Virus record (IMG/VR): IMGVR_UViG_2870490042_000002
Strand: one strand, 5' to 3'
Length of the DNA: 36,250 bases
Origin: a virus
Taxonomy: Duplodnaviria > Heunggongvirae > Uroviricota > Caudoviricetes
Part shown: positions 584 through 34,888 of the stretch, piece by piece
Numbering within the stretch: position 1 is the stretch's first letter
Layout: every line of letters starts with the position of its first letter
Notes under the pieces: model-generated
Databases searched by the model: none
Told to the model about the DNA's origin: nothing
The model's input: only the letters and a program-made list of their open reading frames with translations
Position numbers and translations under genes: made by a program

Positions 584-1597
584 CTACCCTACTGTGGACA
601 CTGTGTGGACACTCTGAGAGCCAACACCACCACGTAGAGGATTAAGCGTTATCGCGTCCTGTAGGTACTCAGGGGCGAAGTGCGCATATGTCATTGTCTG
701 CTCAATTCTTGAATGCCCAAGTATTCTCTGAAGCGTGATAATGTTGCCTCCGTTTATCATAAAGTGCGTGGCGAAGCTGTGCCGCAATGCGTGCGTAGCC
801 TGACCCGGTGGTAGGTCGGGTTTCAGCTCCTTCATTAGCCGTCTGAACGCGGGATAGTTAGCATCAGTGAACAGATAGCCACGCTTACCCGTTGTGATCA
901 TTGTTGCCAGTTCCTCGGATATAGGAACGGTTCGCGGCTTGTTGGTTTTTGTCTTAACGAAAGTGACGCGATTTTGAATGATATTTTCCGCTTTCAGTTT
1001 TGCTGCCTCACTCCATCTCGCGCCGGTGCTAAGGCAAAGAATCGCAATTTTTTTATTATCACCGTCCACTTTTGACAGCAGAAGCGCGATCTCCTCTTGC
1101 GTCAGGTAGCCGGTTTCTGGCTTATCCTCTTTGAGTCTTTTAAGACCTCGGAAAGGATGCTCCCCGAAAAATAGCTCCGCATCTATCAACGCGGTAAACA
1201 TCCCGCTAAGACACGTTAAATCACGATTTATACTCGATGGCTTGATGCCTTGAGAACGCCGCACAGTGCTGTATTGGCTTATCAATGACTTAGTAATCTG
1301 AAAGGCACAAGGGTCACTGGTTATCTTTGTGAACAACTCTAACTTGCCCAGGTAATCTCGGCCGTGAGTTTCATACTTGCCTTTCAGCTCCCACCAGATT
1401 TTTGTTAGCTCTGACAGATGCCGCTTATCTGTCGGTTTCGCCAACCATTCTTTGTTGTGATGGTTGTACTGGGTATGCTTCTCGAAAGCGATAGCTTCGC
1501 TTTTCTTGTCAAATTTCCTGCGGATGCGCTTTCCGTTGCGCCCTGCAGGTCTAATGTCCACTTCATAACGACCATCATCGAGCTTTTTAACAGACAT
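584..1597 (-). CDS. int: Tyrosine integrase, P2 Int-like (337 aa)
   Basis: ORF 584..1630 trimmed to the internal start MSVKKLDDGRYEVDIRP. Near-colinear with P2 Int as recalled, including C-terminal HALRHSFATHFM...LGHSRIEQTMTYAHF (catalytic R, H-x-x-R, Y). Confidence 0.9.
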   Translation of the reverse strand: MSVKKLDDGRYEVDIRPAGRNGKRIRRKFDKKSEAIAFEKHTQYNHHNKEWLAKPTDKRHLSELTKIWWELKGKYETHGRDYLGKLELFTKITSDPCAFQITKSLISQYSTVRRSQGIKPSSINRDLTCLSGMFTALIDAELFFGEHPFRGLKRLKEDKPETGYLTQEEIALLLSKVDGDNKKIAILCLSTGARWSEAAKLKAENIIQNRVTFVKTKTNKPRTVPISEELATMITTGKRGYLFTDANYPAFRRLMKELKPDLPPGQATHALRHSFATHFMINGGNIITLQRILGHSRIEQTMTYAHFAPEYLQDAITLNPLRGGVGSQSVHTVSTVG

Positions 1598-1693
1598 AAA
1601 GCCTCCCGATGATGTTACTGCGTACTTCAATTTCCTGATTTAAATAACAAAAACTCACCGTGCATTTACTGCACAGATAAGCACCGTAAATGG

Positions 1694-3662: not shown

Positions 3663-5943
3663 GACTCGGGGGCGTATTGCCCCCTCGCTAGCCCTGCCAA
3701 TATCTAAGCGCACCGGCGATACTTTCGTTGGTGCTTATCCCTGGAATGCTCCCCGCGCTGCCATTGGCCGTGACAGACCCCTTACACGTGCCGAATTCCG
3801 TCAGGTGCAAGGTGTTTTATACCGGATTGACCGCCTGCCTTTCTTTCTTAAGACGTTGTTTACTTCCCGTTATAACTTCATTCGTCGCACAAAGAGCCCG
3901 CTCGGGGCGCTCTATTTCCTGAAAAACACCTTTGAGCGGAAGCTGTTGCCGCGTCTTGAGCGCGTTAACGAGCTGTGCGGGATGAATGAATCTGCGTCGA
4001 TTGGTTTCTTGTCTGAGCGTGACGAATATGCGCGCTTGCCTGATATGAATGACAAAGAGCTGAAAAAATTTGCGGCCAGAATTGCCGCGCAGCTCTGGCG
4101 TAAATACGAGGAACTCAGCGACGAATGGGCTGAGGCATTCGGCGGTAAAGAGACCCTTTTCACCGATGAGGCGCAGGTGCACATATATGGTCAGGTGGCT
4201 GGTGTTGCACGCGCGTTCAACTTAACCCCGCTCTACTGGAAAAAATACCGTAAGGGTCAGATAACGATCCGCATGGCGTTTTCCGCTATTTCCCGTCTGA
4301 TAAAAGATGATTGGTGGGTTAACCAGCTCAAGGCGCAGCGTATGCGCTGGCGCGAGGCGCTGCTTATCGCTGCCGGTGAAGTCAACAAAGACCGTTCACC
4401 TTACGCCAGCAAAATGGCGATCCGCGAGGTTCACTCGCGCCGGCTGGCTAATCTCGAATACCTGAAATCCTGTGAGCTGGAAAACAAAGTTACCGGCGAA
4501 CGTATCGACCTCATCAGTAAAGTCATGGGGAGTATTTCAAACCCTGAAATACGCCGTATGGAGCTGATGAACACCATTGCCGGAATTGAACGCTATGCGG
4601 CCAGCGTTGGTGATGTGGGAATGTTTATCACGCTGACCACGCCGTCGAAGTATCACCCGACCCGACAGGTCGGCAAAGGTGACAGCAAAACGGTGCAGCT
4701 CAATCACGGCTGGAACGAAACCGCATTCACCCCTAAAAACGGCCAGCGCTATCTGTGCCGAATCTGGAGCCTGATGCGTACCGCTTTCAAAGATAACGAT
4801 TTGGAAGTGTATGGGATGCGCGTTGTCGAGCCGCACCACGACGGCACGCCACACTGGCATATGATGCTTTTTTGCAAACTCAGTCAGCGTAAAGCTATCA
4901 ACGAAATTATGCGTCGTTATGCCCTCAAAGAGGACGGACGCGAAAAGGGCGCGGCAAAACAGCGCTTTGAGTCGCGTCACCTTAATCAGGGGGGCGCGGC
5001 GGGTTATATCGCCAAATACATTGCCAAAAATATCGACGGCTACGCGCTTGACGGTCAGCTCGATCACGATACCGGCAAATCTCTGAAAGATACGGCCGCA
5101 GCCGTAACCGCATGGGCGTCTACATGGCGTATCCCTCAGTTTAAACCGATTGGCCTCCCGACAATGGGCGCTTACCGCGAACTGCGTAAGCTGCCGCGCG
5201 GGGTGAGTATCGCCAGCGAGTTTGACGACCGTGTCGAGGCCGTCCGGGCTGCTGCAGATGAGGGGGAATTTGACCTGTACATCAGCGCGCAGGGTGGGGC
5301 AAACATGCAGCGTGATGCTCAGGCGGTCAGGGTCGCCCGTAAGGTGACGGATGAGGTAAACGAATACGAGGAGGATATCGAGAAAGTGGTCGGTATTTAT
5401 GCCCCTCATCTTGGGGTGAGCCGCGTACATGTAACCCGTACAGCGGAATGGCGCATAGTTCCAAAGGTTTTGGCCGTTGAGCCTTTGACCTTAAAAAGCG
5501 GCTTTGCCGCGCCTCGGAGTCCTGTCAATAACTGTGGAAAGCTTGCCGACGGTGGCGATCCAGTTATGACACCTACACCGTCTGAGCAAGCCGCAGCGGT
5601 GTTAAATTTGATTGAGGCCGGGGTTATCGGCTGGAATGAGCCAGACGTCATGAAGGTTCTTAACGGCGCGTTAAAAGCTGGCGCACCTCGCAATAATCGC
5701 CAGCAAAGAAGCAATGCGCCACTCAAAACGAGCGAGCAAGCTCCATCAGCCAGGATGACAAAACCAGAAAGGGATCGCGTGGCGAAAATTCGTTTCGATT
5801 TGGCTCAGGAGGGCATTACCCCGGAACGGTGGGCGCTCGAAGCGCTGGCGCGTGGGGCAACGGTGATTTATGGCGATAAAAAAATCAAATACGCGGCTGC
5901 TGATGAGTGGCCGGGATTCTCAATTCAAGAGGAGCAGAATTAA
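3652..5943 (+). CDS. A: Rolling-circle replication initiator endonuclease, P2 gpA-like (763 aa)
   Basis: ORF 3571..5943 trimmed to MAVETRGR (P2 A starts MAVKASGR as recalled). Long colinear blocks include EPHHDGTPHWHMM and GGAAGYIAKYIAKNIDGY. Confidence 0.9.
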   Translation: MAVETRGRIAPSLALPISKRTGDTFVGAYPWNAPRAAIGRDRPLTRAEFRQVQGVLYRIDRLPFFLKTLFTSRYNFIRRTKSPLGALYFLKNTFERKLLPRLERVNELCGMNESASIGFLSERDEYARLPDMNDKELKKFAARIAAQLWRKYEELSDEWAEAFGGKETLFTDEAQVHIYGQVAGVARAFNLTPLYWKKYRKGQITIRMAFSAISRLIKDDWWVNQLKAQRMRWREALLIAAGEVNKDRSPYASKMAIREVHSRRLANLEYLKSCELENKVTGERIDLISKVMGSISNPEIRRMELMNTIAGIERYAASVGDVGMFITLTTPSKYHPTRQVGKGDSKTVQLNHGWNETAFTPKNGQRYLCRIWSLMRTAFKDNDLEVYGMRVVEPHHDGTPHWHMMLFCKLSQRKAINEIMRRYALKEDGREKGAAKQRFESRHLNQGGAAGYIAKYIAKNIDGYALDGQLDHDTGKSLKDTAAAVTAWASTWRIPQFKPIGLPTMGAYRELRKLPRGVSIASEFDDRVEAVRAAADEGEFDLYISAQGGANMQRDAQAVRVARKVTDEVNEYEEDIEKVVGIYAPHLGVSRVHVTRTAEWRIVPKVLAVEPLTLKSGFAAPRSPVNNCGKLADGGDPVMTPTPSEQAAAVLNLIEAGVIGWNEPDVMKVLNGALKAGAPRNNRQQRSNAPLKTSEQAPSARMTKPERDRVAKIRFDLAQEGITPERWALEALARGATVIYGDKKIKYAAADEWPGFSIQEEQN

Positions 5944-6401
5944 TGAGCAAAATCCATGAGTTAAAAATTGCACCTGAGTATTTTAACTCTGTGATATCTC
6001 AGGAAAAACGTGCTGAATTTCGTCTCAATGACCGCGATTATTCTAGCGGTGATATTCTCGGGTTGCATGAATGGGAACCGGTAAACAGATATACCGGGAA
6101 ACGTGTATCAGTGAGGGTGACAAACGTTACGGATTTATCTGAATGGGCGGAAAATTATGTGATGCTGAGTTTTCAGTTAATGATGCCAGATGTCCAGTGC
6201 GGTATGTCCCTAATGAACTGGAAAGAGTTAAGCGAGAAGGGGCTTGTTTTCAGAGTTAATCACGAAATTCTACACCCGTTAGGGCTGGCTATTAGATATG
6301 AAACACTTAACAGCGTTTCTGGTAGGGCTTACATCGCTGATGATGGTGTCTGGCAATATTCCGACAAGTTGGTCGCAGATGCTAAAAAAATGGGTGGTTA
6401 A
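5943..6401 (+). CDS. DUF3850/ASCH-like (PUA-fold) protein with an about 80-aa C-terminal extension
   Basis: ATG at 5943 overlaps the gene A stop (TAATG). N-terminus MSKIHELKIAPEYFNSVISQEKRAEFRLNDRDYSSGDILGL matches the DUF3850 pattern as recalled. Confidence 0.6.
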   Translation: MSKIHELKIAPEYFNSVISQEKRAEFRLNDRDYSSGDILGLHEWEPVNRYTGKRVSVRVTNVTDLSEWAENYVMLSFQLMMPDVQCGMSLMNWKELSEKGLVFRVNHEILHPLGLAIRYETLNSVSGRAYIADDGVWQYSDKLVADAKKMGG

Positions 6402-6402
6402 A

Positions 6403-6642
6403 ATGAGTCATATGCGAATGATGCCAGTGCCGCCGATACATTCAACGCAAAACATTAAGCTGATGGCCGTCGTACATCGCCTGCAACAAATTATGATTAA
6501 CGAGAATCTGACCCCTGACGAACTGGTCGGGTGTGCCGGTGTCGTCCGGGATAATCACCGCAAATACAGCGATATCAGCAATCCGAAAATTGAGGCGTTT
6601 CGGCCACCAAATATGGCAAAGCCACCACCGCGTCGACCATAG
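6403..6642 (+). CDS. Possible small ORF (79 aa), hypothetical
   Basis: ATG 2 nt after the upstream stop. No recognisable motif and only a weak RBS; could be non-coding packaging sequence. Confidence 0.2.
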   Translation: MSHMRMMPVPPIHSTQNIKLMAVVHRLQQIMINENLTPDELVGCAGVVRDNHRKYSDISNPKIEAFRPPNMAKPPPRRP

Positions 6643-6924
6643 CAAACGCCGCCGGTGCTGAAACTTGTTTTCAGTGCCAGCGGTGTTGAGCAACGAGCCC
6701 CGCGAGACGTTAGCCTGCACCGTAGAGACCACCCCCAACCGGCACGATTAAAGTCGGTTTTATTATGCAATTTTCCCACAATTTCCCGGTTTTTTAGCCG
6801 TGCATGCAACAGGTGCATTTTTTTGCATGCGTTGGGGATGCCTGTTCTGGCCGCGCGCCGCCAGAGCAGGCGCGGATCCAGAGTGGTCATGCAACTGCAT
6901 TAAAAACGACCCATAAAGCGGGCA

Positions 6925-6943
6925 GGCGAGGCGGGGTAAGCAT
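6925..6943. other. cos site (19-nt cohesive-end sequence GGCGAGGCGGGGTAAGCAT)
   Basis: 17 of 19 identity to the P2 cohesive end GGCGAGGCGGGGAAAGCAC as recalled. Located on the Q side of the packaging genes. Confidence 0.6.
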
Positions 6944-7014
6944 TGCGCGCGCCTGTCAAAGATATTAAGATTGTCTCAAAATCGATTGATTTTATTGAAC
7001 TAATGGAGCTAGGA

Positions 7015-31653: not shown

Positions 31654-31875
31654 ATGTTTCATTGTCCGAAATGCCATCATGCCGCCCACGCCCGCACGAG
31701 TCGCTATTTTACTGATACCACAAAAGAGCGGTATCACCAGTGCACAAACATTAACTGCAGCTGCACGTTTGTGACCACTGAAACAGTCGAGCGTTTTATC
31801 GTGTCGCCGGGGGAAGTAGTACCCGCGCCGCCGCATCCGACATCATCAGGTCAGCAACAAATTCACTGGATGTGA
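31654..31875 (+). CDS. ogr: Late gene transcriptional activator Ogr (zinc finger), 73 aa
   Basis: ORF 31630..31875 trimmed to MFHCPKCHHAAHARTSRYFTDTTKERYHQCTNINCSCTF. Cys-x2-Cys...Cys-x4-Cys zinc finger as in P2 Ogr. Confidence 0.85.
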   Translation: MFHCPKCHHAAHARTSRYFTDTTKERYHQCTNINCSCTFVTTETVERFIVSPGEVVPAPPHPTSSGQQQIHWM

Positions 31876-31942
31876 CAAACGAGAAAGCCCCGCGATGTAC
31901 TGCACCCATTTTGTTGGACGATGAAATGGAATAGCCCCTAAT

Positions 31943-32464
31943 ATGTCAAAGCCAAAATACCCTTTTGAAAAGCGCCTTGAAGTCGTGAATCACTACTTCA
32001 CAACTGATGATGGTTACAGGATCATCTCGGCACGTTTTGGTGTCCCCCGAACCCAGGTCAGGACATGGGTTGCCCTCTATGAAAAACATGGAGAAAAAGG
32101 TTTAATTCCCAAACCTAAAGGCGTTAGTGCTGATCCAGAGTTGCGTATTAAGGTCGTGAAAGCTGTGATCGAGCAGCACATGTCCCTTAATCAGGCTGCT
32201 GCTCACTTTATGCTTGCTGGTAGTGGTTCTGTAGCCAGGTGGCTGAAGGTCTATGAAGAGCGCGGAGAAGCTGGTTTACGCGCGCTCAAGATTGGCACCA
32301 AAAGAAACATTGCAATATCAGTTGATCCAGAAAAAGCGGCATCAGCATTGGAGCTGTCAAAAGACCGACGCATTGAGGATCTTGAAAGGCAAGTTCGATT
32401 TCTTGAAACGCGGCTTATGTATCTAAAAAAGCTGAAAGCCTTAGCTCATCCCACGAAAAAGTGA
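31943..32464 (+). CDS. insJ: IS150 OrfA (InsJ, 173 aa, HTH)
   Basis: MSKPKYPFEKRLEVVNHYFTTDDGYRIISARFGVPRTQVRTWV. IS3-family OrfA with C-terminal leucine zipper. Confidence 0.85.
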   Translation: MSKPKYPFEKRLEVVNHYFTTDDGYRIISARFGVPRTQVRTWVALYEKHGEKGLIPKPKGVSADPELRIKVVKAVIEQHMSLNQAAAHFMLAGSGSVARWLKVYEERGEAGLRALKIGTKRNIAISVDPEKAASALELSKDRRIEDLERQVRFLETRLMYLKKLKALAHPTKK

Positions 32465-33312
32465 AAGTACTCAACGAGCTAAGGCAGTTTTATCCTCTTG
32501 ATGAGCTTCTCAGGGCTGCGGAGATACCGCGCAGTACGTTTTATTATCATCTAAAGGCTCTCAGCAAGCCTGACAAGTATGCGGACGTTAAAAAGCGTAT
32601 TAGTGAGATTTATCACGAGAATAGAGGCCGATACGGATACCGTAGGGTAACGCTGTCTCTTCATCGAGAAGGGAAACAGATTAACCATAAAGCTGTTCAG
32701 CGCCTGATGGGAACCCTCTCACTTAAAGCAGCGATTAAGGTCAAGCGATACCGCTCTTACAGAGGAGAGGTAGGGCAAACCGCCCCTAATGTTCTCCAAA
32801 GAGATTTCAAGGCTACGCGGCCAAACGAGAAGTGGGTTACCGATGTTACTGAATTTGCAGTCAATGGGCGCAAGCTGTATTTGTCTCCAGTAATAGATCT
32901 CTTCAACAACGAAGTTATTTCTTACAGCCTTTCGGAAAGACCAGTGATGAACATGGTTGAGAATATGCTCGATCAGGCATTCAAAAAGCTTAATCCTCAC
33001 GAGCATCCTGTTCTGCACTCTGACCAGGGATGGCAGTATCGTATGAGAAGATATCAAAATATCCTTAAAGAACATGGTATTAAACAAAGCATGTCCAGAA
33101 AAGGCAATTGTCTGGATAATGCTGTGGTGGAGTGTTTCTTTGGAACCTTAAAGTCGGAGTGTTTTTATCTTGATGAGTTCAGTAATATAAGCGAACTGAA
33201 GGATGCTGTTACGGAATATATTGAATACTACAACAGCAGAAGAATTAGCCTGAAATTAAAAGGTCTGACTCCAATTGAATATCGGAATCAGACCTATATG
33301 CCTCGTGTTTAA
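32461..33312 (+). CDS. insK: IS150 OrfB (InsK, DDE transposase catalytic domain)
   Basis: 283-aa ORF in the -1 frame relative to OrfA, GTG start at 32461. IS3-family DDE transposase core. Confidence 0.85.
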
Positions 33313-33627
33313 CTGTCCAACTTTTTGGGGTCAGTACACGAATGCGGGGCTTTTTGCAACTTTTAGATCAGTTATGTTAAGTACATTTCCGTCGGCAAAG
33401 TGCCAGGAGCGGGTTCTAGAGAGTGACTAACGTTAGTTATATGTGTAAAATTCCTTAAAAATAAGAAGGATATATATCCATGACAGCAATTGCATATTGG
33501 ATTAACTGAGAATCAATTGAGAAATTTTTGGGGGGGCAAAAAATAAACTAGCTAATTAAATTTTTATAAATAACGAATATAAGACTGCAAGCCATTTAAC
33601 AAAAGTTTATAAATAAAGGAGTCAGTT

Positions 33628-34479
33628 TTGAACAATATCCCCATATCTACTCAATGGACTTTAGACGCTACGGGTGAAGTTGGACGCTCATCAGTAAATT
33701 CTGTTTATATGATTATATGTCCTGCGACCGGCTCGAAAGGATCTGGTTTTTTAATAGATAATGGGTTAATAGTAACGAACGAGCATGTTATCACTGGATG
33801 CTCTACAAATCAGATTTTCGCAATTTCAGCTTATGGACAGAAGATTCCAATTTCTCAAAAATGGATAGATTCTGATCGCGATTTAGCTGTGCTGAGACCT
33901 GCCATTACCCAGACTGGTGGGCTAAGTATTGTTAAGGATAATGATCTTAAAGTTGGTGAATCAGTAACAACTTGGGGATACCCATTAGGATACAACGGTC
34001 CTGCACCGTTACTATCCGTTGGTTATCTAGCAGGATTTAACTCATACCAAACCGCCAAGGGACAAAAAAAACATCTAGTGGTAAATGGGGCATTTAACTC
34101 AGGAAATTCTGGTGGAGCTCTTTTAAAAGCTTCAGATAATAAAGTAATAGGTATTGTAGTGAGTAAGCATGCTCCTATCAGTCAATACCATCAATCAGCT
34201 ATTGAAGCTTTGTCTGAAAATATGAGTGGCGTCACCTATACCGCTACTAATGACGCTGGAGAAACTAAAAGTTTTGTAGAATCTCAAATTGTAGCAGAAT
34301 TATTGATTCATATGAGAAGTCTAACTCAAGTTATGATTGGAGAAGCAATTGCAGCAGAGGAATTACTTTCGATGCTTAGCGAAATTGACTTGAGTCCACC
34401 ACAATCTATGTCAAGAAATGCCTTATGTCATTGCGGGAGTGGAAAACGCTTCAAAGAATGTCATGGAAAGATATCCTAG
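33628..34479 (+). CDS. Trypsin-like (S1) serine protease with C-terminal SEC-C zinc-binding motif; cargo gene
   Basis: TTG start with RBS AAGGAG 5 nt upstream. Triad candidates His in VTNEHV, Asp in DLAVL, Ser in GNSGGAL. C-terminal CHCGSGKRFKECHG. No signal peptide. AT-rich. Confidence 0.75.
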   Translation: MNNIPISTQWTLDATGEVGRSSVNSVYMIICPATGSKGSGFLIDNGLIVTNEHVITGCSTNQIFAISAYGQKIPISQKWIDSDRDLAVLRPAITQTGGLSIVKDNDLKVGESVTTWGYPLGYNGPAPLLSVGYLAGFNSYQTAKGQKKHLVVNGAFNSGNSGGALLKASDNKVIGIVVSKHAPISQYHQSAIEALSENMSGVTYTATNDAGETKSFVESQIVAELLIHMRSLTQVMIGEAIAAEELLSMLSEIDLSPPQSMSRNALCHCGSGKRFKECHGKIS

Positions 34480-34628
34480 TAAGTACTTATATCAGTCTGA
34501 TAATGGCTCTTCAAATACAAAAGACTTCACTTACTCTGCCGTCATCTCTGCTCCTCGCTTATTGCAGACGGTCAAAAGCTTACAAGCTGTTGACTAGATG
34601 TGTTCTTACATTGTCAGTTAAAACAAAA

Positions 34629-34651
34629 GCCCCGCAAATGCGGGGCTTTTT
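34629..34651 (+). terminator. Rho-independent terminator after the protease cargo gene
   Basis: GCCCCGC-aaat-GCGGGGC followed by TTTTT. Near-identical to the terminator after ogr that is split by IS150. Confidence 0.55.
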
Positions 34652-34712
34652 GTATCGATGTGGTCAATGTGTGGACATTGATAGAAATAAATCCATTTAT
34701 TTCAGTAATTTA

Positions 34713-34739
34713 CATGCAAAAAATAAGCCCGTGTAAGGG
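34713..34739. repeat. attR core (22-bp direct repeat of attL core plus ATGCA), also the 3' end of cyaR
   Basis: Exact repeat of 478-499. Preceded by TGTGGACA (34668-34675) and TATCGATGTGGTCAATG arm sequence. Confidence 0.6.
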
Positions 34740-34804
34740 AGATTACACAGGCTAAGGAGGTGGTTCCTGGTACAGCTAGCATTTTATGGGTTATGTTTTT
34801 CAGC
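34718..34804 (-). ncRNA. cyaR: CyaR (RyeE) Hfq-dependent sRNA, 87 nt
   Basis: Reverse complement reads GCUGAAAAACAUAACCCAUAAAAUGCUAGCUGUACCAGGAACCACCUCCUUAGCCUGUGUAAUCUCCCUUACACGGGCUUAUUUUUU, matching E. coli CyaR as recalled, with terminator hairpin and U-tail. Confidence 0.75.
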
Positions 34805-34888
34805 GAAACGGATGATAACCTTAATAAATGCAGCTGTATGTGATCGGTTTCTAAGAATTTTCCATCCGGGAAAAATAATCGAAATTAA

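Follow-up and report, generated by a model that had tools for sequence, protein, structure and literature searches.

Morons are reportedly promoter-gene-terminator units (Juhala et al. 2000; Hendrix et al. 2000). The concept has been described (PMC3573123), and passages of Rousset 2022, Egorov 2024 and Moura de Sousa 2026 describe a less populated 'third' P2 hotspot, running from the tail protein to CI/int or lying downstream of gpL toward att, whose cargo is diverse, rapidly swapped and includes defence genes (PMC9122126; bioRxiv 10.1101/2024.10.15.618418; PMC13586616). Those passages define hotspots by their flanking genes, and they contain no description of a duplicated ogr terminator or of L/R-type sites such as those reported below; the words 'terminator' and 'ogr' are absent from PMC13586616. 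At the nucleotide level, the closest counterpart is P2 itself. In its record, ogr is followed by a 'rho-independent terminator for ogr transcript and F operon', then after 4 nt by the Int P-arm, and beyond that by an IHF site and the attP core.

The window, by which we mean the whole stretch of 36,250 nucleotides that was analysed, holds a P2-like prophage with gpD and ogr at its right end and an integrase-sized ORF at its left end. The features that define the two ends are as follows.

584-1630, minus strand: integrase-sized ORF (ORF list)
31654-31875, plus strand: ogr, late-gene activator, 73 aa (ORF; 75% nucleotide identity to P2 over the ogr-att region)
34655-34682, plus strand: Int P-arm binding sites, TCGATGTGGTCAATGTGTGGACATTGAT (alignment to the P2-annotated 'Int, P arm' protein_bind)
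34683-34716, plus strand: IHF site of attP/attR (alignment to the P2-annotated IHF site)
34718-34744, plus strand: attR core (identical to the 27-nt P2 attP core)
34721-34806, minus strand: cyaR sRNA gene (Rfam RF00112, 100.7 bits against a gathering score of 47)

The ogr gene, which ends with a stop codon at 31873-31875 and lies beside gpD, is labelled in RefSeq as a DNA-binding transcriptional regulator. From P-arm through IHF site to core, order and spacing are those of P2, and a second core (attL, 478-504) is located by int at the other prophage end; the two cores have 0 and 2 mismatches to that of P2 (0.00 expected by chance). To the right of cyaR lies yegQ. The cyaR gene is convergent with the cargo gene described below, and its 3' end overlaps the att core.

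Between ogr and the P-arm, a preliminary description of this DNA had noticed near-identical hairpins, one after ogr, split by an IS150 element, and one after a protease gene, at 34629-34651. The parts of the two copies, and the element, are located as follows.

31884-31895, plus strand: left part of terminator copy 1, AAAGCCCCGCGA (intact in the IS-free allele L004, 3585-3611)
31896-33338, plus strand: IS150, 1443 bp, in the loop of terminator copy 1 (ends, target duplication, identity)
33342-33356, plus strand: right part of terminator copy 1, ATGCGGGGCTTTTTG (sequence match, direct-repeat search)
34626-34652, plus strand: terminator copy 2, AAAGCCCCGCAAATGCGGGGCTTTTTG (sequence match, direct-repeat search, folding)

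A pattern search of the window placed the core of copy 2, GCCCCGCAAATGCGGGGC-TTTTT, exactly at 34629-34651, and this is the single match to the full hairpin pattern in the window as it stands (0.02 expected by chance). Copy 2 lies 150 nt past the stop codon of the protease gene and is separated by 75 nt from cyaR. In the left part of copy 1, the hairpin core is GCCCCGCGA (31887-31895). The intervening element has the ends TGTACTG...CAGTACA, a 3-bp target duplication CGA (31893-31895 and 33339-33341) and overlapping orfA/orfB-type ORFs at 31943-32464 (173 aa) and 32461-33312 (283 aa), and is 100% identical to RefSeq copies annotated 'IS3-like element IS150 family transposase'. IS150 has thus disrupted terminator copy 1 in the window. 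Deletion of the element together with one CGA rebuilds copy 1 as AAAGCCCCGCGAATGCGGGGCTTTTTG. This reconstruction is confirmed by a natural IS-free allele of the same prophage in E. coli AR_0137 (NZ_CP021879), in which the ogr piece abuts the cargo piece and the copy 1 hairpin is whole (L004 3588-3605). A direct-repeat search of the IS-free allele returned one direct repeat, of 27 nt, 26/27 identical (96%) and spaced 1296 nt, with the sole mismatch in the loop. Both hairpins are therefore as the preliminary description had them, and so close a match between the copies may stem from a recent event or from gene conversion.

Folding energies of the two copies are -21 to -23 kcal/mol (z -4 to -5 relative to shuffles), similar to that of the annotated P2 terminator. 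The stem consists of 7 G/C pairs lengthened by A-T pairs, the loop has 4 nt, and a TTTTT run follows the stem in both copies. By its stem, loop, T-run and position, the hairpin has the sequence attributes expected of an intrinsic (rho-independent) terminator. With an A-run on its 5' side as well as the T-run after it, copy 2 also gives a terminator pattern on the minus strand, and is thus terminator-like on both strands. Two other assignments for these hairpins were rejected: Rfam matches obtained at a permissive threshold (GcvB, leader peptides, isrJ and others) are sub-threshold, all fall on the hairpin and are driven by the terminator, CyaR being the one genuine match, and a sigma-70 promoter over the T-tail of copy 1 (TTGCAA-17-TTAAGT) fails because the second position of its -10 element is not the conserved A in any relative.

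The P2 terminator (AF063097 24265-24288) resembles these hairpins in its position, about 10 nt past the ogr stop (copy 1 starts 11 nt past it) and 4-8 nt before the Int P-arm, in its build of AAAG, a 7-bp GC stem, a 4-nt loop and a T-run, and in its folding energy. It differs in the stem, which is GCCCCTC/GAGGGGC in P2 and GCCCCGC/GCGGGGC here, and in that P2 is without cargo and has the hairpin once. Against the phage collection, megablast gave almost no matches for the cargo region or for a synthetic cargo-less join of the ogr side and the P-arm side of the window, because this lineage is only ~75% identical to P2. With short-word blastn, the join aligned collinearly to P2 and to 70 further phage records, across 80% or more of its length. 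This collinearity identifies the hairpin as the ogr and late-operon terminator, and judged by sequence the two hairpins are copies of the P2-type ogr/F-operon terminator.

A survey was made of 80 IMG/VR loci encoding Ogr relatives, with a tolerant hairpin search and with redundancy removed. The P-arm motif is found 38-42 nt past the ogr stop in cargo-less loci, and 450 to ~4950 nt past it in many others. One hairpin and no insert are present in P2, Enterobacter phage ENT4, E. coli UTAK-6 (at the same cyaR/yegQ site), OkiPb01676 (at another att site) and four IMG/VR loci; a single hairpin was counted in 8/8 distinct cargo-less architectures, and in P2 and every cargo-less relative examined it stands 4-8 nt before the Int P-arm sites. 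No cargo-less relative with both hairpins was seen among those examined (P2, ENT4, UTAK-6 and the four IMG/VR loci). The earlier statement that the cargo is bracketed by two copies of the same terminator is upheld.

Distinct cargo-bearing architectures numbered 25. The family hairpin is found on both sides of a variable insert in 17 of them, and a stem-loop stands directly after ogr in most. The cargo varies from phage to phage, lies on either strand, and includes EAL, TIR, alkyl sulfatase, ApeA-HEPN, DUF4238 and AbiC-like proteins, an 824-aa protein and a 137-156-aa protein, of which the TIR, ApeA-HEPN, AbiC-like, DUF4238 and EAL proteins fit the third hotspot as it is portrayed in the passages cited above. 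Between the hairpins lies a slot that many kinds of cargo occupy, and the arrangement is a moron slot in the third P2 hotspot. Insulation of this slot by the terminators is plausible and fits the survey, where stem-loops occur on both sides in nearly every cargo-bearing relative. Such insulation from late transcription is not obligatory, since relatives of the KV7 type have a single terminator, on the far side of the cargo from ogr, and lack a hairpin behind ogr itself. Nor is a working terminator always kept on the P-arm side, as several copies there are degraded, having lost the T-run (tails such as TATAGA, TTACAT and TTCAAT) or acquired stem mismatches.

The best explanation overall, to which we give a probability of roughly 0.6, is that the ogr terminator was duplicated, that the two copies insulate a cargo slot, and that the protease gene of the window was exchanged into this slot at a pair of sites, L and R, located inside the hairpins. 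The degraded copies bear on an unlikely alternative, in which the duplication is a neutral scar of slot formation and the P-arm-side copy is functionless and decaying. Such a scar would agree with the many P-arm-side copies that are mismatched or weak in their T-run where ogr-side copies are mostly perfect, and with minus-strand cargo genes, which have the P-arm-side copy upstream, so that it is not their terminator. Yet a stem-loop is kept directly before the P-arm in 25/25 cargo-bearing architectures, even where the ogr-side terminator is unrelated, and its conservation beside attP suggests constraint, or at least tight linkage. In the window, moreover, copy 2 is perfect and follows a plus-strand gene.

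The extent of the duplicated stretch is informative as to its origin. Its length is mostly 23-27 nt; in the small-protein cassette it is 31-46 nt and extends into the last ogr codons, and in L041 and L096 it is 82-85 nt and comprises the terminator, P-arm and IHF site. Since the length differs by lineage within a range of 23-85 nt, the duplication arose repeatedly. Its ends are variable but always span the terminator, which argues against a target duplication of fixed length and against a site-specific event at the hairpin; on these lengths, a fixed-length target duplication is not what is seen.

For the preferred reading, a duplicated terminator enclosing an insulated slot, we propose the following course. 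The short stretch between ogr and the Int P-arm of attP would have opened into a cargo slot in this P2-like clade when illegitimate or unequal recombination duplicated the terminator, leaving one copy with ogr and the other with the P-arm. Only those products would be viable in which ogr kept its terminator and the P-arm, IHF site and core remained intact and contiguous, and this filter would account for a duplicated stretch that always includes the terminator and has variable ends. Copy 1 would block late and ogr transcription into the cargo. Copy 2 would block cargo transcription from crossing attR and running antisense into cyaR, and may also block outside transcription from entering the cargo. 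Since then IS150 has entered the loop of copy 1 in the window, destroying that terminator.

The cargo gene of the window, the sequences that join it to the hairpins, and the two sites are located as follows.

33357-33390, plus strand: left adaptor, from copy 1 to the L site (alignment; conserved in P2-like slots with other cargo)
33391-33413, plus strand: L site, degenerate, GTCGGCAAA GTGCCA GGAGCGGG (central hexamer 33400-33405)
33628-34479, plus strand: cargo gene, 283-aa trypsin-like serine protease with a C-terminal SEC-C motif (Pfam)
34546-34569, plus strand: R site, degenerate, CTCTGCTCC TCGCTT ATTGCAGAC (central hexamer 34555-34560)
34570-34625, plus strand: right adaptor, from the R site to copy 2 (alignment to L051, L045, L082, L022)

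The protease matches the Pfam families Trypsin_2 (1e-19) and SEC-C (3.6e-7). Its gene occurs in 34/5426 E. coli genomes, has no counterpart in UTAK-6, ENT4, P2 or the four cargo-less IMG/VR loci, and was found in 0/80 Ogr loci besides L020 and L021, two truncated copies of the same prophage. GC content is 33-40% over the cargo region (33300-34650), 55-62% in gpD and ~57-60% for the phage genes nearby. The gene is thus missing from close relatives, lies between conserved phage features and has a composition unlike that of the phage, as a moron does. The likeness to morons extends to the terminators, one after the low-GC foreign gene and that of the upstream operon before it. The differences are that here the flanking terminators are copies of each other, that the slot is re-usable and common to unrelated cargo, and that a promoter of its own is not demonstrable for the protease gene: promoter-like hexamer pairs are present at 33423-33451 and 33517-33544, but the count for the region is 8 against a shuffle expectation of 7.8.

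With 78-86% nucleotide identity, the protease cassette is also found in Klebsiella chromosomes, at the end of a Mu-like prophage and in a Yersinia lambdoid prophage. The hairpin was sought in these three contexts and is carried by 0/3, from which it follows that both copies in the window are phage-derived. Of the two flanks seen in the single-copy state, copy 1 retains the one toward ogr and copy 2 the one toward the P-arm, the right flank of copy 2 being identical to that of the sole hairpin in cargo-less UTAK-6.

Inside the hairpins, the flanking sequences are shared with other P2-like slots. Both hairpins with ~35-80 nt of inner flank also occur in P2-like phages carrying EAL, TIR, alkyl sulfatase or a multi-gene insert. 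On the left, ~35-55 nt after copy 1 are common to L035, L042, L045, L051, L090, L043, L022, L082 and the L067 group, and the left adaptor (nhmmer E 2e-12 to 5e-8) is always found ~40 nt past the ogr stop; in some relatives it contains a CRP-site-like TGTGN8CACA, which is not conserved in the window. On the right, ~80 nt before copy 2 are common to L051, L045, L082 and L022. The protease-specific DNA starts at 33404/5, as given by the Klebsiella homology, and ends at 34518-34572; in the Mu-like context the cassette homology ends at 34572, and from 34547 on there is homology to P2 slots that hold other cargo. Because the two kinds of homology meet at the motifs, the boundaries of the protease DNA fall at L and R, which are 34 nt and 56 nt inside the hairpins. 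Relative to the consensus sequences given below, L and R of the window carry 4 or 5 mismatches each, and may be fossils.

The whole slot was also considered as a transposon or MITE whose long terminal inverted repeats include the hairpins, and this was rejected, the inverted repeat not being significant in the window allele (37 vs 41). Inverted-repeat scores of the inner flanks are 37-46 in L045 and L051, against a shuffle maximum of 34-36, and not significant in L082 and L022, and nhmmer gave weak values (E 0.1-1). The inverted-repeat likeness of the inner flanks arises because L and R share palindromic arms.

In another alternative the hairpin is a recombination site in itself, and each acquisition of cargo would leave a copy on either side by a short-homology crossover, by template switching at the hairpin or through a hairpin-specific enzyme. 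In every lineage the direct repeat has the hairpin at its centre, and 27 nt is a length usable by homologous recombination. Other mobile DNA lands there too, namely IS150 in the loop and, in KV7 and L024, a group II intron directly after the hairpin. We nevertheless regard this alternative as improbable, since the protease breakpoints are at L and R instead of at the hairpins, phages that differ in cargo have both hairpins and the inner adaptors in common, and a duplicated stretch of such variable length speaks against a site-specific event. The further suggestion of the preliminary description, that the protease gene was acquired by recombination at the terminator, accordingly does not hold for this gene. 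The alignment of ogr-att regions that it called for gives boundaries unrelated to the hairpin as far as the protease is concerned, an outcome that it had named as refuting, and leaves standing the terminator as the place where the slot itself originated. That copy 2 is the cargo's own terminator, its likeness to the ogr terminator due to chance or convergence, is effectively refuted, for although GC-rich terminators of the form AAAGCCCCGC...GCGGGGCTTTT are common, the other contexts of the protease cassette all lack the hairpin, 26/27 identity stands against 0.02 chance matches, and the 3' flank of copy 2 runs into the P-arm exactly as in cargo-less phages. The protease gene was, on the preferred reading, most likely exchanged into a pre-existing slot at L and R.

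Sites of both kinds extend well beyond the window. The R consensus is GTCCGCTyy TCGCTC wtAGCGGAC and the L consensus GTCCGCTyy GTGCCA rrAGCGGAC, so the two have the same arms (GTCCGCT/AGCGGAC) and different centres. The exact R pattern is present in 90 contig stretches from IMG/VR; the contigs are of diverse size, some hold several copies, and L often follows R by 15-30 nt. When central hexamers were counted between arms with at most one mismatch each, TCGCTC accounted for 98 and GTGCCA for 56 of 180 strand-wise counts, in which most sites are counted on both strands because the arms are palindromic; the other hexamers were singletons. The R-L junction element occurs in 1510/5426 E. coli genomes, at 1-5 places in each, on chromosomes and plasmids, and is therefore part of the accessory genome. 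Many Alphaproteobacteria also contain the exact L pattern, as part of dense site arrays whose arms are the same and whose centres are GTGCCA or GGGTCA.

A lambdoid prophage (L190) has the two sites in alternation, L-cargo-R followed by L-cargo-R. One of its cargo genes, encoding a 314-aa protein, is also present in a CP4-type island (L191), beside DarTG and a type I restriction system. Comparison of these loci shows no relatedness as far as L, identity from GTGCCA through the cargo, and divergence right after the TCGCTC of R. A systematic breakpoint test on the collected loci provided two informative pairs only, most loci being redundant copies. Cassettes plus flanks were also searched against all complete E. 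coli genomes. In hundreds of these genomes only the left flank is present, with the alignment ending at the right edge of L, and in hundreds only the right flank, from R or its central hexamer onward (query 2142/2148/2150); in other E. coli contexts, alignments of the cargo open with the first base of L and run to R (query 194-1382/1403; 200-2164). With inverted arms, a 6-bp centre and breaks of identity at the edges of the centre, L and R fit the core site of a tyrosine recombinase.

A candidate for such an enzyme is encoded in the lambdoid prophage L190, where a 200-aa protein (WP_023147793.1) consisting of a tyrosine-recombinase catalytic domain only, with Arg, Lys, HxxR, His and Tyr, is located exactly between R and L. 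Both E. coli and IMG/VR loci repeatedly have the gene between R and L. In IMG/VR contigs an L site lies 21-29 nt past the stop codon of close homologues, some of which also have R ~70 nt before the start, and cassettes of differing lengths flank them. Two of the alphaproteobacterial loci with L arrays encode site-flanked homologues that are 52-55% identical. The family comprises at least 8000 clusters of ~200 aa with generic names only; the best 120 clusters are 77-95% identical and come from many gammaproteobacterial genera. Against curated models the protein gave weak Xer- and FimB-type matches only, and a sequence search returned no solved relative. Its assignment as an integron integrase was rejected (17 bits against cut-offs of 265-435).

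Integron cassettes are nonetheless similar in several respects, with their arrays of short promoter-less or single-gene cassettes, imperfect palindromic junctions and an adjoining tyrosine recombinase gene. The differences are that the boundary RYYYAAC/GTTRRRY is lacking here, that two site types alternate, alike in their arms but not in their centres, and that the candidate recombinase, unlike the integron integrase, has 200 aa. The junction elements, which contain two 7-10-7 palindromes, were accordingly rejected as attC sites, their ends GTTAGCAA ... TTGCTAAC having the opposite polarity to RYYYAAC...GTTRRRY. No Rfam family covers the L/R junction elements. Considered as a conserved RNA hairpin, R has stem variants that show mismatches and no clear compensatory changes.

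Recombinase-mediated cassette exchange (RMCE) is a man-made exchange with heterospecific lox/FRT sites, and the pdif modules of Acinetobacter plasmids involve XerC/XerD and dif-like 11-6-11 sites. Both resemble the present arrangement in having cargo between two sites with shared recombinase-binding arms and different centres. Since the central hexamers of L and R differ, these should not recombine with each other; as in RMCE, each site would pair only with its own kind, giving exchange and not excision. The present sites differ from both in being ~9-6-9, of other sequence, and associated with a small stand-alone candidate recombinase. A search of openly accessible literature returned nothing relevant on a described system with such sites or on natural cassette exchange in prophages.

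The shared arms, the centres that would not pair, the breakpoints at these centres and the co-located recombinase gene suggest site-specific exchange. We tentatively propose, while putting the odds somewhat below even, that L and R are core sites of an undescribed site-specific cassette-exchange system with the 200-aa tyrosine recombinase as candidate enzyme. Alternatively, ordinary homologous recombination may operate, using the L and R sites as short homologies. As regards cargo in general, exchange probably takes place at the L/R sites. An exchange system of the kind proposed would carry single-gene or few-gene cassettes, many of them defence-like, and its traffic would link P2-like phages, lambdoid prophages, CP4-type islands, plasmids and chromosomes. 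The ogr-att slot, insulated by its duplicated terminator, would be one docking place among these.

These results give a nucleotide-level view of how a P2-like phage hosts foreign genes beside attP while its late-gene termination and integration site remain undisturbed: the slot keeps a terminator on both sides. They also correct the intuitive reading, as the protease gene did not come in at the terminator. How defence and accessory genes are swapped so fast at the hotspots of phages and satellites is an open question; in the passages concerned, Rousset 2022 proposed recombination near cos (PMC9122126), and Moura de Sousa 2026 reported swapping and sharing between element types, with no mechanism given (PMC13586616). 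The L/R motifs most likely mark exchangeable gene cassettes in many mobile elements, and the sites together with the small recombinase offer a concrete hypothesis that can be tested at the bench, and a more novel lead than the terminator slot. If it is true, cassette boundaries would be predictable from sequence, the system might serve as a compact exchange tool, and it would be a natural counterpart of recombinase-mediated cassette exchange.

Comparison of cassette contexts revealed that cargo is bounded by two alternating types of palindromic site (about 9-6-9), designated L and R, not only in P2-like slots but also in the cassettes of lambdoid prophages, CP4-type islands and plasmids:

Window 33391-33413 and 34546-34569: L/R sites
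Lambdoid prophage L190, 5873-5895, 7047-7070, 7089-7111 and 9030-9053: L/R sites
Comparison loci L100-L179: L/R sites

The arms GTCCGCT/AGCGGAC are common to both types, while the central hexamer is GTGCCA in L and TCGCTC in R, and it is at these hexamers that homology between contexts breaks.

A small tyrosine recombinase (200 aa, catalytic domain only) has its gene flanked by an R site on one side and an L site on the other:

L190 9093-9695; L192-L221; L304; L374 4759-5349; L293 1353-1940: recombinase loci

All catalytic residues are present. The family is very large and carries only generic names, and no solved relative was found by sequence. Homologues in Alphaproteobacteria are likewise flanked by L/R-type sites, and dense arrays of sites were observed in Xanthobacteraceae, Pseudolabrys and Methyloceanibacter genomes:

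L260-L379, e.g. L292, L300 and L283: dense site arrays

These arrays contain up to 15 sites per 8 kb, frequently paired about 45 nt apart, with the arms ATGTCCGCT/AGCGGACAT and central hexamers including GTGCCA and GGGTCA among others. They may be arrays of cassettes or, alternatively, a REP-like family spread across the genome.

Cargo in the slot between the terminator hairpins includes:

Window 33628-34479: protease cargo gene, whose product is trypsin-like and carries a SEC-C zinc motif
L037, L040, L050, L058, L083 and L096, minus strand, between the two hairpins: recurrent small cassette (slot about 490 nt)

The protease has more than 900 relatives across bacteria, and PADLOC returned domain-level matches only, to the protease portions of RT-Protease_XI, PDC-M35A, LmuA and HamA, all defence proteins. 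The small cassette encodes a protein of 137-156 aa with a signal-peptide-like N-terminus, for which no Pfam match was found; no L/R sites were detectable in this cassette.

The terminator downstream of ogr is itself associated with mobile elements:

Window 31896-33338: IS150, in terminator copy 1, precisely within its 4-nt loop
L005 (E. coli KV7), about 5020-6950, and the same in L024: group II intron, with Rfam D1-D4 and domain V/VI matches

The IS150 insertion is accompanied by a 3-bp CGA duplication and should abolish termination after ogr in the window's strain; the prophage region of E. coli AR_0137 is otherwise identical but without the IS. In KV7 and L024, the group II intron lies in the interval from hairpin to P-arm, starting directly 3' of the terminator T-run (TTTTTGTAT followed by GTGCG), and is a second mobile element with the ogr terminator as its landing place. 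The KV7-type lineage also carries a small 69-aa ORF between ogr and its single terminator.

In some relatives, the unit of terminator, P-arm and IHF site is wholly repeated in tandem with cargo between the copies, and the att core adjoins the right-hand unit only:

L041 (6223 onward), L096 and L059: tandem units

In L059, each of the two units is followed by a different core-like sequence. In the window, cyaR is full length by score (85/85 model positions). At 34718-34806, the 3' terminator of this sRNA gene and the att core share sequence, and the last bases of cyaR therefore come from the prophage.
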